Of a DNA stretch of 64,000 nucleotides, positions 11,481 to 13,148 are shown in pieces (within the stretch, counting starts at the first letter, position 1; each line of letters opens with the position of its first letter). The stretch is from a virus (taxonomy: Duplodnaviria; Heunggongvirae; Uroviricota; Caudoviricetes), in IMG/VR virus record IMGVR_UViG_2609459792_000007; one strand, given 5' to 3'. Position numbers and translations under genes: made by a program. The notes beneath the pieces are model-generated. The model saw nothing but the letters and a program-made list of their open reading frames with translations. It was not told the origin of the DNA and searched no databases.

Positions 11481-11532
11481 ATTACCACCAAACTCACTCC
11501 CATTTCCCTTAAAATTCAAAAAACAACGTCAA

Positions 11533-11565
11533 AATGATTCCATACCTACTATGTATGGAATCATT
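11533..11565. other. lox-like recombination site candidate (13-bp inverted arms, 7-bp spacer)
   Basis: aatgattccatac-ctactat-gtatggaatcatt, perfect arms, ~100 bp upstream of the tyrosine recombinase gene. Confidence 0.5.
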
Positions 11566-11663
11566 AGTGAAAATGAGTTACTTTTACTCTTGATCCTATA
11601 AGAATCTATGCCTAATATACTGTTTACTTATACAGTGAATCGGCGTAACTCGGTGATTGTCAT

Positions 11664-12767
11664 ATGAAAAATAGCTTTGACAGAGCACGCGCTGCGGAGA
11701 ACACCTCAAAAGAGGCGATTGAGTATCTCGAAAGAGCATCTCAAATGCAGGCCGTTATGATCTCGCAGGTTAGCATTGATATGAGATTCTCGGACGCATT
11801 CATGTTATTCACTCGCTTATCTCTGCTGATAACCAGACGTCGGCCAGAGATCGCTGTTCATTGTATTTTGATACATGTTTTGCCGCACATTGCCGATGTA
11901 AAAGTAAGTGACATTAATAGGTTCATGGTGAACCAGCTGGTCAACCCACTAATACTGGATGGCAAAATTGTTATGGGCCGCCGCGTTTTCTCTCTGATGA
12001 AACAGTTCCTTAGCTGGTGCGCCTTCCAGGGGATGATAGACGTGTCACCGTTAAACGATATGTCACTAAACAAAGTTGCCGGTGGCGCAAAGCCCACACC
12101 TCGCGAGCGGAAGCTGACCGACGCAGAGGTATGGGTGTTCTGGAATATATGGGACTACTTCAATGTGTGCGCTGGTACAAAATGGGCGGCCAGGCTGTGT
12201 CTTGTATCAGCAAGACGACCTGACGAAGTACTGCGGGCTAAAAAAAGTGAGTTCAATCTTAAGCGTGGGGTTTGGAATCAAGGCAAGAGAAACAAGTCAG
12301 CACGTGAGCATTCGCTGCCTTTAAGCACATTAATGCGCACATGCATTGAAGAGTTGTTCGAATACGGTAAAGACAGCCAGTGGCTCGTGCCTTCGAATAA
12401 AAAAATCGGGAAAGACCTTCCTATGTCTAAAGTGGCAATAGCCCAGGCATTACGTCGTATTCTGGAACGACCAGAACTGATGGAGCTTGAGCCATTTACA
12501 CCCCGAGATTTGCGCCGTACTGCGCGTAGTTACTTCCCAGCATTAGGCATAAGCCAGGAGGTATCACGCAAAATCATGAACCACAGTCTTGAGGGGATAG
12601 ATCGGGTCTACGACCGGCACGATTATATGGACGAGATGCGAGACGCCTTAGAAAGTTTCTCGACGTACATCGCATCAATCGTAGAGCAACCGGATTTAGA
12701 CGAAATTGACCACAAATTCAAGGGAGATCGTCTATCAACAGAGCTTATTCGTGTAAATTTTTCATAG
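11664..12767 (+). CDS. Tyrosine site-specific recombinase (integrase or Cre-like resolvase)
   Basis: C-terminal catalytic region with RDLRRTARS and HSLEGIDRVYDRHDY (R..H..R..Y pattern); N-terminal start uncertain. Confidence 0.75.
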   Translation: MKNSFDRARAAENTSKEAIEYLERASQMQAVMISQVSIDMRFSDAFMLFTRLSLLITRRRPEIAVHCILIHVLPHIADVKVSDINRFMVNQLVNPLILDGKIVMGRRVFSLMKQFLSWCAFQGMIDVSPLNDMSLNKVAGGAKPTPRERKLTDAEVWVFWNIWDYFNVCAGTKWAARLCLVSARRPDEVLRAKKSEFNLKRGVWNQGKRNKSAREHSLPLSTLMRTCIEELFEYGKDSQWLVPSNKKIGKDLPMSKVAIAQALRRILERPELMELEPFTPRDLRRTARSYFPALGISQEVSRKIMNHSLEGIDRVYDRHDYMDEMRDALESFSTYIASIVEQPDLDEIDHKFKGDRLSTELIRVNFS

Positions 12768-13148
12768 AGACTTTATGGCCTCAACAACCTTTTGTGATGC
12801 GCCTTTCTCTTTACCGAATCGCTCGTTATACGCAGCAAGAACCTGTTTTTCGTCCTCGTTAAGAGGAGCGGTGCCTTCTTTGTATAAAAATGCTGCGAGT
12901 TCAGGTTGGCGTTCTTCCAGCACCATCATCATAAGACGACTTGGTTCAATACCCAGCGCCAGCGCCAGCGGACGAACCTTATCGATAGGCAAAGGAATTT
13001 TGCCACTTTTAATTAAAGAAAGGTTGTTGGCATTTTTATAACCAATAAGTCTGGCTATTTGGGCCTGACTCATAGGTGAGGATTCAATCAGCCCTGCGAT
13101 AAAAGCAGCATAGCGACTTTCTATAAATTCAATCTTGTTGTCAGACAT
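12762..13148 (-). CDS. XRE-family helix-turn-helix transcriptional regulator
   Basis: HTH segment MSQAQIARLIGYKNANNLSLIKSGK; convergent with and slightly overlapping the recombinase 3' end. Confidence 0.65.
   Translation of the reverse strand: MSDNKIEFIESRYAAFIAGLIESSPMSQAQIARLIGYKNANNLSLIKSGKIPLPIDKVRPLALALGIEPSRLMMMVLEERQPELAAFLYKEGTAPLNEDEKQVLAAYNERFGKEKGASQKVVEAIKSL

Follow-up and report, generated by a model that had tools for sequence, protein, structure and literature searches.

A lox-like palindrome and its arm-less lambda/P4-clade recombinase as a probable monomerisation module of SSU5/pHCM2-type phage-plasmids

The 64,000-nt stretch of viral DNA analyzed here over its whole length (IMG/VR record IMGVR_UViG_2609459792_000007; hereafter the window) belongs to an SSU5/pHCM2-type phage-plasmid and carries a 33-bp palindrome directly upstream of its tyrosine recombinase gene (int). 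Comparative sequence evidence makes it probable that the palindrome and the recombinase constitute a self-contained Cre/loxP-like plasmid module, which most likely monomerises the plasmid rather than integrating it. An earlier note on this DNA had described the palindrome as a Cre/Xer-type core site and had proposed multimer resolution, leaving open an integrase function on account of a nearby tRNA cluster and a convergent XRE regulator gene; our computational tests support multimer resolution as the presumable role.

Over the 2.5-kb region compared, the window is 99.1% identical to the E. coli plasmid ESBL242 and 96.6% identical to phage Cyrano of strain LF82. ESBL242, the closest complete plasmid, carries an IncFIB RepA, a ParA-like ATPase, toxin-antitoxin genes, and a siphovirus structural module, with its terminase and portal region ~38 kb from the palindrome. 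Cyrano is a functional phage that produces virions and is present at ~5.5 copies per cell (PMC9928086).

Results

A perfect palindrome precedes the recombinase gene

The palindrome, AATGATTCCATAC-CTACTAT-GTATGGAATCATT, occupies positions 11533-11565 in a 13-7-13 layout, exactly as the earlier note had it: its arms are complementary at 13 of 13 positions, its 7-bp spacer is asymmetric, and outward extension of the arms is blocked by a/a at 11532/11566. The recombinase ATG follows after 98 bp, which agrees with the ~100 bp given before. The component features are as follows.

11533-11545, plus strand: left arm, AATGATTCCATAC (in lower case, aatgattccatac), unchanged among relatives and covarying with the right arm across the family; proposed binding site of one recombinase monomer.
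11546-11552, plus strand: spacer CTACTAT, 7 bp long in all 49 loci found by protein pattern (see below); proposed strand-exchange (overlap) region.
11553-11565, minus strand: right arm, gtatggaatcatt, which reads AATGATTCCATAC on the minus strand; identified from the sequence and by repeat search.
11590-11618, plus strand: candidate int promoter, TTGATC-17 nt-TAATAT, with both hexamers conserved among relatives; tentative.
11664-12767, plus strand: tyrosine recombinase gene, 367 amino acids, assigned by Pfam, family alignment, an AlphaFold2 (AF2) model, and Foldseek.

Perfect 13-7-13 repeats are expected by chance ~0.001 times per 64 kb (~0.01 times if any spacer of 3-12 bp is allowed), and 30 shuffles of the sequence yielded no perfect repeat with 13-bp arms and a 7-bp spacer. 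A repeat search recovers the palindrome as 16-nt arms with 94% complementarity, a result of the spacer's own near-palindromic sequence (TACTA). As single-stranded DNA, it would fold into a hairpin of -12 kcal/mol (z = -7). No Rfam family was detected at the palindrome or in the upstream noncoding region, where tRNAs alone were found; no GC-skew switch indicative of an origin or terminus occurs at the palindrome, the skew being positive throughout the window; and a sigma-70 promoter scan around the palindrome returned nothing over threshold, with the candidate listed above scoring 8/12. A literature search with the arm sequences retrieved unrelated primers only and no relevant paper. Elsewhere in the window, only two perfect inverted repeats with arms of at least 13 bp are present, one at 46702-46736 (15-nt arms, 5-nt gap) and the other at 53286-53329 (16-nt arms, 12-nt gap), both far above chance expectation.

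The palindrome is linked to, and covaries with, the recombinase

Three samples of loci were compared, namely (i) 94 IMG/VR loci gathered by the site pattern, a sample biased toward perfect arms; (ii) individual distant recombinase proteins and their loci; and (iii) 49 loci collected by protein patterns alone, with one genome per species, from 13 or more genera and down to 43% identity. In all three samples, int is preceded by an inverted repeat whose spacer is 7 bp long. The site-pattern loci contain at least eight spacer forms within widely differing flanks, and every distant-protein locus has a perfect repeat, with arms of 11-14 bp and a 7-bp spacer, that ends 19-130 bp upstream of the gene. 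The protein-found sample has the site upstream of int in 49 of 49 loci, with arms of 11-16 bp and a spacer that is always 7 bp; the repeat is perfect in 44 of them, and the remaining five show one or two arm mismatches at the same place. Eight contexts beyond these 49 conform to the same architecture. Across loci, the distance from site to gene ranges from 19 to ~290 bp.

Only two arm types occur, GATTCCATAC and GACTCCAGAC, and both arms of a site switch together; a few natural intermediates are found in Biostraticola and Chimaeribacter, and two Chimaeribacter genomes each hold two family members with differing arm types. Moreover, the site and the recombinase are kept as a pair on an Erwinia plasmid, on the 507-kb Pantoea vagans plasmid pPV989-508, and on a 722-kb Rahnella contig, where the XRE, CobT, CobS, and DnaE neighbors are all absent. 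The XRE gene adjoins int in phage-plasmids only and not in the megaplasmid relatives, in which the module stands alone among metabolic genes. The symmetric covariation of the arms, along with the persistence of the pair amid changed neighbors, ties the palindrome to the recombinase rather than to the XRE gene or another phage gene. We therefore regard the palindrome as very likely the cognate core recombination site of the adjacent enzyme, so that the assignment made in the earlier note is well borne out across the 49 protein-found loci.

The recombinase is predicted to be an arm-less member of the lambda/P4 clade

The recombinase matches Pfam Phage_integrase (PF00589; E 5.4e-10, 39.7 bits against a cut-off of 27.1) and the phrog_1 integrase (E 6.8e-46). 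Arg185, Lys211, Arg284, and the nucleophile Tyr316 are invariant across the family alignment, and His307 is conserved in at least 90% of the family; the first box-II histidine is replaced by Arg281, which is invariant in the 24-member alignment. Homologs reach down to ~43% identity across the Enterobacterales, and the full catalytic set, including the tyrosine nucleophile, is retained down to 43%. This conservation suggests that catalysis, beyond DNA binding, is under selection.

The protein comprises a core-binding and a catalytic domain and lacks the arm-binding N-terminal domain (PF13356). Its AF2 model (predicted local distance difference test score 85, predicted template-modeling score 0.76) adopts a two-domain C-clamp fold, for which lambda Int residues 75-356 are the best Foldseek match (E 2.5e-6), followed by Tn1549 Int, XerH, and XerA, with these matches spanning E values of 1e-6 to 1e-4. 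Cre appears at rank 34 or lower (E ~1e-2), with lambda Int, Tn1549 Int, and the Xer proteins all scoring better, and a phmmer search against PDB sequences gave no match at E<=1. The remoter sequence relatives (<=34% identity) are P4-type integrases that do contain PF13356. Judged from its sequence and predicted fold, the enzyme belongs to the lambda/P4 clade, for which a 7-bp overlap is typical, as an arm-less member that presumably acts at a site of lox-like architecture. Thus, the label Cre/Xer-type holds for the site architecture, but not for the enzyme.

The module resides on plasmids, with one site per replicon

In 5,426 complete E. coli genomes, the recombinase gene lies on plasmids at 255 of 255 places and on the chromosome at none. 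A 45-bp site query found one site per carrying genome (252 E. coli genomes), always on a plasmid, and no chromosomal attB, attL/attR, or second copy in the same set. Consistent with this, PLSDB yielded 799 plasmids with 1,599 site matches counted on both strands, which amounts to essentially one intact site each. Between attL/attR and a single site, the alternatives that the earlier note had set out, these counts come down on the single site. Close homologs on long contigs, among the matches listed, have unchanged neighbors, and neither arm-type sites nor an arm-binding domain were found. The tRNA genes near the site vary in number, with four in the window (~900 bp away), three in Cyrano, and one in pJN2-26, and are, by this comparison, variable phage cargo. 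The integrase function once left open on the strength of the tRNA cluster and the XRE gene accordingly finds no support.

The only site-specific recombinase annotated on ESBL242 is the homolog labeled 'site-specific integrase', a count that rests on the PLSDB gene table, which is itself incomplete, and the window segments missing from ESBL242 encode no further recombinase; the description of int as the only tyrosine recombinase is upheld to this extent. A host XerCD site, considered as an alternative resolution system, gained no support from a simple consensus search, which gave only weak matches and no cer/dif-like site conserved on the element. The palindrome was not among the matches of the dif/cer scan, so its arms are unlike XerC/XerD sites. 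The best cer-like match in the window, GGTGCGTTTAA-ACAAGTTG-TTATCTTATAT at 40700-40730 on the minus strand, has two mismatches per Xer arm and is probably due to chance, because the ESBL242 scan gave no equivalent match.

Homology among relatives breaks at the left edge of the site

Homology breakpoints of ~100 related loci were mapped onto the window. Forty-three of these breakpoints coincide with the outer edge of the left arm (11532-11534), versus ~20 or fewer in any other 20-bp bin, which makes the left edge of the site the chief point at which homology between relatives is lost. Since no relative differs in its arms, the real junction could be at any position between the arm edge and the spacer. 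The region to the left (window ~11483-11532 and its equivalents) is a cargo hotspot whose contents differ by element; in relatives, it corresponds to L001:6655-7530, L002:4225-6000, L003:100-6000, L100:6920-7880, L109:8630-9990, and L112:1970-3100 (numbers preceded by L denote related loci). Cyrano has a single moron here (CYRAN_43), placed on the minus strand immediately left of the site, and in the Cyrano lysogen this gene is expressed 723-fold above background (PMC9928086). pJN2-26 has three genes and PhiR41_1 a 6-kb replacement, and the cargo of other elements includes a YafO-like toxin, Ail/Lom, PhoH, an Acb2/Tad1-like anti-defense protein, and a 2.4-kb gene of no assigned function. On sequence grounds, the breakpoint pattern would fit a site-specific exchange that takes place now and then between relatives in one cell, with homologous resolution afterward.

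Two further features lie in the left flank.

11458-11477, plus strand: intrinsic terminator of the upstream glutaredoxin gene, at the end of the variable cargo region abutting the site.
11512-11524, plus strand: A-rich element aaattcaaaaaac (given also as AATTCAAAAAAC), ~10 bp outside the left arm.

The A-rich element lies on the int-distal side only and is kept where the remaining flank is unrelated. By eye, a recurrent CAGAWTTYAAAAAA / AATTCAnnAAAAC pattern can be followed in the left flanks of relatives, including those of Xenorhabdus and Providencia; the element is absent from the Erwinia plasmid (L103). It is a candidate site for an accessory factor, or it could form part of a promoter directed leftward.

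The spacer is conserved and flips in place

The spacer is AT-rich and has CTA at one end in 42 of 56 loci; 30 of the 56 contain CTATTAA/TTAATAG, which occurs in both orientations and with both arm types. Relative to int, spacer orientation toggles repeatedly, as in CTATTAA/TTAATAG, GTAATTA/TAATTAC, TTATATA/TATATAA, and CTACTAT/ATAGTAG. PhiR41_1 (site at L003:6001-6033) and an IMG/VR locus (L046, reverse strand, ~5995) are 99.88% identical over 10.4 kb, and three of the 12 differences between them make up an exact in-place reverse complement of the spacer. Canonical site-specific recombination does not account for this flip, because the half-spacers stay with their flanks there. Replication template-switching across the 13-bp arms, or a rare antiparallel synapsis of the symmetric site, is possible instead. 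The neutrality of spacer orientation fits a site that acts only against copies of itself.

Solo half-sites converge on the palindrome

The exact 13-mer arm occurs five times in the window (8862+, 9874+, 11533+, 11553-, and 17583-), and the palindrome with the three solo arms accounts for all exact copies in ~99 kb of complete plasmid. All three solos point toward the palindrome; a degenerate fourth copy lies within int.

8862-8877, plus strand: solo half-site 1, AATGATTCCATAC followed by ATC, overlapping the stop of the open reading frame (ORF) at 8651-8866 and the start of the 50-amino-acid ORF at 8863-9015.
9874-9889, plus strand: solo half-site 2, AATGATTCCATAC followed by ATC, ~190 bp upstream of the tRNA cluster.
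12270-12282, minus strand: degenerate copy CTTGATTCCAAAC with three mismatches, inside int (codons V-W-N-Q).
17580-17595, minus strand: solo half-site 3, inside the dnaE-like ORF at 17330-20848 and read there as C-M-E-S, within a variable loop.

Conservation among the solos covers a 12-mer plus ATC; this unit recurs in many unrelated contexts, and only the three bases past the arm are kept. When polarity was counted over related loci L001-L117, oriented by int, every one of 147 solos faced the palindrome; the 73 left-hand copies lie without exception on the plus strand, and the 74 right-hand copies on the minus strand. These solos span at least eight independent left contexts and two right contexts. 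The int-internal copy is a near-perfect solo (14/15) in Klebsiella, Citrobacter, and Yersinia lineages and is read there in a different frame from the dnaE copy, such that the motif is written into two genes in two reading frames. In lineages lacking the motif, the dnaE loop contains unrelated residues at this position, which rules out protein conservation as the cause of the dnaE solo; the dnaE copy thus appears to be imposed on a variable loop by a constraint at the DNA level. Further, the Klebsiella michiganensis solo at 4502 has the same G variant as the arms of its own element. Solos are restricted to the GATTCCATAC lineage, and none was found in the GACTCCAGAC clade, in which one-mismatch matches show neither ATC nor polarity and serve as a negative control.

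Solos did not coincide with homology breakpoints in the ~100 loci mapped. Their 7-bp 'spacers' show no left-right match except in the E. coli type (in the window, the 8862 and 17583 solos have an identical 20-mer), and no convincing second arm was seen beside them by eye. They are best read as extra sites at which the same protein is predicted to bind and whose function would depend on orientation. Solo half-site 2 lies in a stretch of ~780 bp (9303-10081), between a small-ORF operon and the tRNA cluster, that has no convincing ORF; the stretch also holds a GC-rich hairpin (9508-9531), and its only Rfam signal is a tmRNA-like match at 9376-9478, far below threshold.

Other features of the element

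ESBL242 (L108:16565-17841; 66374-68713) is ~1.3 kb longer than the window at 24016-24026, inside an annotated LAGLIDADG homing endonuclease gene, which points to an intein or homing endonuclease variably inserted into a replication gene. The dnaE-like gene, a single 1,172-amino-acid ORF in the window, is called as two ORFs in Nissabacter (L099:13864-17131) and Klebsiella michiganensis (L100:13421-17024), where PHP, polymerase, and finger domains are followed by HHH_6. A region of low GC content (0.41) and high AT skew at 25500-30000 holds a 2.9-kb window-specific insert (26113-28987) and lies close to the position of RepA as mapped in ESBL242; it may be the plasmid origin region. Finally, the divergent region between the XRE gene and ORF13400 (13300-13335) contains a short palindrome, catctgatatagatg, plus the motif TAGATGTATT, and Xenorhabdus has a related palindrome, AATACATCTA-N6-TAGATGTATT, upstream of int (L101:7783-7808). 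These elements may be XRE repressor operators, or the 8-mer that they share may be due to chance.

Discussion

As we picture the module, one recombinase monomer would bind each 13-bp arm, two sites would synapse as a tetramer, and strands would be cut at putative cleavage positions and exchanged across the 7-bp spacer. With a single site per replicon, the natural substrate would be the two direct copies present in a plasmid dimer, which makes multimer resolution the most likely role: multimers would be converted to monomers, and the low-copy phage-plasmid would segregate stably. Circularisation of incoming phage DNA is a possible further role. Occasional recombination between the sites of co-resident elements is proposed as the cause of the homology loss exactly at the site and would leave differing cargo on its left.

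Several observations weigh against monomerisation at a lox-like site. The breakpoint at the edge of the site could stem from a conserved int-promoter module that starts beside an insertion hotspot, and the module boundary is not strictly the spacer, because the A-rich element left of the arm is conserved too. A site just upstream of the gene would also resemble an autoregulatory operator. Moreover, the spacer is conserved far beyond the partner-matching need of a dimer-resolution site, and a simple Cre/lox model would not lead one to expect the solo half-sites.

The palindrome might be an operator and nothing else, bound by a dimer of the recombinase or of the convergent XRE protein and controlling int, the leftward cargo, or both. 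It does lie upstream of int at every locus, and in Pantoea (L104) its end is 19 bp from the start codon, so close that a protein bound there would block transcription; the strong lysogenic expression of the Cyrano gene immediately to its left (PMC9928086) and the solo copies, which resemble binding sites rather than crossover sites, point the same way. However, the full catalytic set conserved to 43% identity would be needless in a pure DNA binder, a site-gene distance that varies from 19 to ~290 bp leaves no fixed promoter geometry, and the site tracks int and not the XRE gene. The strict 7-bp spacer, its conserved asymmetric end, and the 20-bp half-site spacing are typical of a recombinase core. 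We therefore judge a pure operator unlikely, whereas autoregulation alongside recombination is possible. Circularisation of linear phage DNA after infection could alternatively be the main job of the module, with dimer resolution being secondary. Cre can circularise P1 DNA after infection. The present element is a functional phage of which virions are made, as seen for Cyrano (PMC9928086). Yet non-phage plasmids and megaplasmids, which lack a virion stage, conserve the module too, and the site does not obviously lie within a terminal redundancy, because the terminase and portal genes are ~38 kb away in ESBL242; we hold this priority of roles to be quite improbable.

Chromosomal integration is disfavored. 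The annotation as 'site-specific integrase', the descent from P4-type integrases, and the four tRNA genes ~900 bp away would suit an attP core whose enzyme inserts the element into a chromosomal attB, for example, in a tRNA gene. The absence of gene and site from the E. coli chromosomes surveyed, the single intact site in 799 plasmids, the unchanged neighbors of the close homologs listed on long contigs, the missing arm-binding domain, the variability of the tRNA cargo, and the solitary module amid metabolic genes on megaplasmids all speak against it, and perfectly symmetric arms are unusual in attP cores; such an integrase is highly improbable. We give scarcely any credence to a shufflon-like multiple-inversion switch, in which left (+) and right (-) copies would invert the int-cobTS-dnaE segment. 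The solos do combine a conserved arm and ATC with a free second arm, as in sfx (PMC11852207), and the left and right solos are mutually inverted, those at 8862 and 17583 having the same 20-mer. Nevertheless, no inversion and no strand-mixed alignment was found in ~100 related loci, outside the E. coli type the spacers of left and right solos neither match nor covary, just three bases after the arm are conserved, and an inversion would truncate dnaE. Inversion between solos was rejected on this basis, the solos not being breakpoints either.

The Cre/loxP-like monomerisation module proposed here has its clearest counterpart in Cre/loxP of P1, which keeps P1 monomeric (PMC2409434), and in the mined systems Vika/vox, Panto/pox, Nigri/nox, and the YR series, which share with it a plasmid-prophage host, a single recombinase gene, and a palindromic site just upstream (PMC2409434, PMC10250229). 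In ~50% of tests, a palindrome lying no more than 1 kb from a Cre-type recombinase gene proved to be a true target (PMC10250229), and surveys of phage-plasmids anticipate such recombinases, without naming the site of the family studied here (PMC7969092). Also common to the Cre-type systems and the present one are perfect 13-bp arms, a short asymmetric spacer, a two-domain protein without an arm-binding domain, one site per replicon, and a proposed monomerisation role. They differ in that the spacer here is 7 bp rather than 8, polar solo half-sites flank the site, and the enzyme is no relative of Cre, having P4-type sequence relatives and an arginine for the first box-II histidine. The lambda/P4-type heterobivalent integrases provide the closest fold, the nearest sequence relatives, and the catalytic residues; unlike them, the present enzyme lacks PF13356, has no arm-type sites or chromosomal attB that we could find, is never seen integrated, and has a perfectly symmetric core site.

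In arrangement, F ResD/rfsF, pSDL2 Rsd/crs, and Tn4430 TnpI/IRS are similar, each combining a plasmid-borne recombinase with an adjacent cis site and a proposed role in multimer resolution. TnpI/IRS has an inverted-repeat core plus extra binding motifs of the same sequence. Its accessory motifs lie within ~100 bp on one side of the core, whereas the extra half-sites in the window lie 0.7-7 kb off, on both sides, and converge on the core. Sites of the Rci/sfx shufflon of IncI plasmids, in which one arm is conserved, the second arm is free, and the spacer is 7 bp (PMC11852207), resemble the solos. They differ from the present system, which shows no inversions, has unmatched left and right spacers, and includes a full symmetric site without a shufflon counterpart. 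The XDS, Ter/Tus, and KOPS motifs around dif resemble the solos as dispersed and/or polar short motifs about a dimer-resolution site, and Ter and KOPS, too, converge on dif. These systems are chromosomal and extend over hundreds of kilobases, in contrast to two to four sites within ~7 kb on a 100-kb plasmid. XDS are dif-like sequences at which XerD, beyond dimer resolution, unloads SMC complexes (Karaboja 2021, as cited in PMC11840125).

By analogy, the solos might form a directional system centered on the resolution site, in which monomers bound to the 15-nt inward-facing polar sites would act as orientation-dependent landmarks; we offer this tentatively and consider it doubtful. Within such a system, the sites might serve as a fork trap on the plasmid scale, guide a translocase or SMC complex or signal its unloading, or provide a looping scaffold for resolution selectivity. 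Equally speculative is the parallel that it would draw, namely a plasmid counterpart of Ter, KOPS, or XDS around dif, made from the half-site of the recombinase itself.

The dispersed polar half-sites and the in-place spacer flips go beyond the earlier note. What emerges here is a probable lox-like module derived from an arm-less lambda/P4-clade integrase, widespread on phage-plasmids and megaplasmids, with a conserved yet flippable 7-bp spacer and polar half-sites. SSU5/pHCM2/pMT1-type phage-plasmids are among the commonest large plasmids of Klebsiella, E. coli, Enterobacter, Salmonella, and Y. pestis, some of them with resistance genes, and their persistent 'integrase' had no site or function assigned before. 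Lox-like monomerisation would explain why these non-integrating elements keep an 'integrase' and why cargo, including morons, toxins, and anti-defense genes, accumulates and is swapped at one point. The family also offers compact pairs of a recombinase and a 33-bp site, with at least two natural arm specificities and from a clade unrelated to Cre, which could be orthogonal engineering tools if active. Finally, the absolute polarity of the half-sites raises the question of whether a recombinase can double as a polar DNA landmark.

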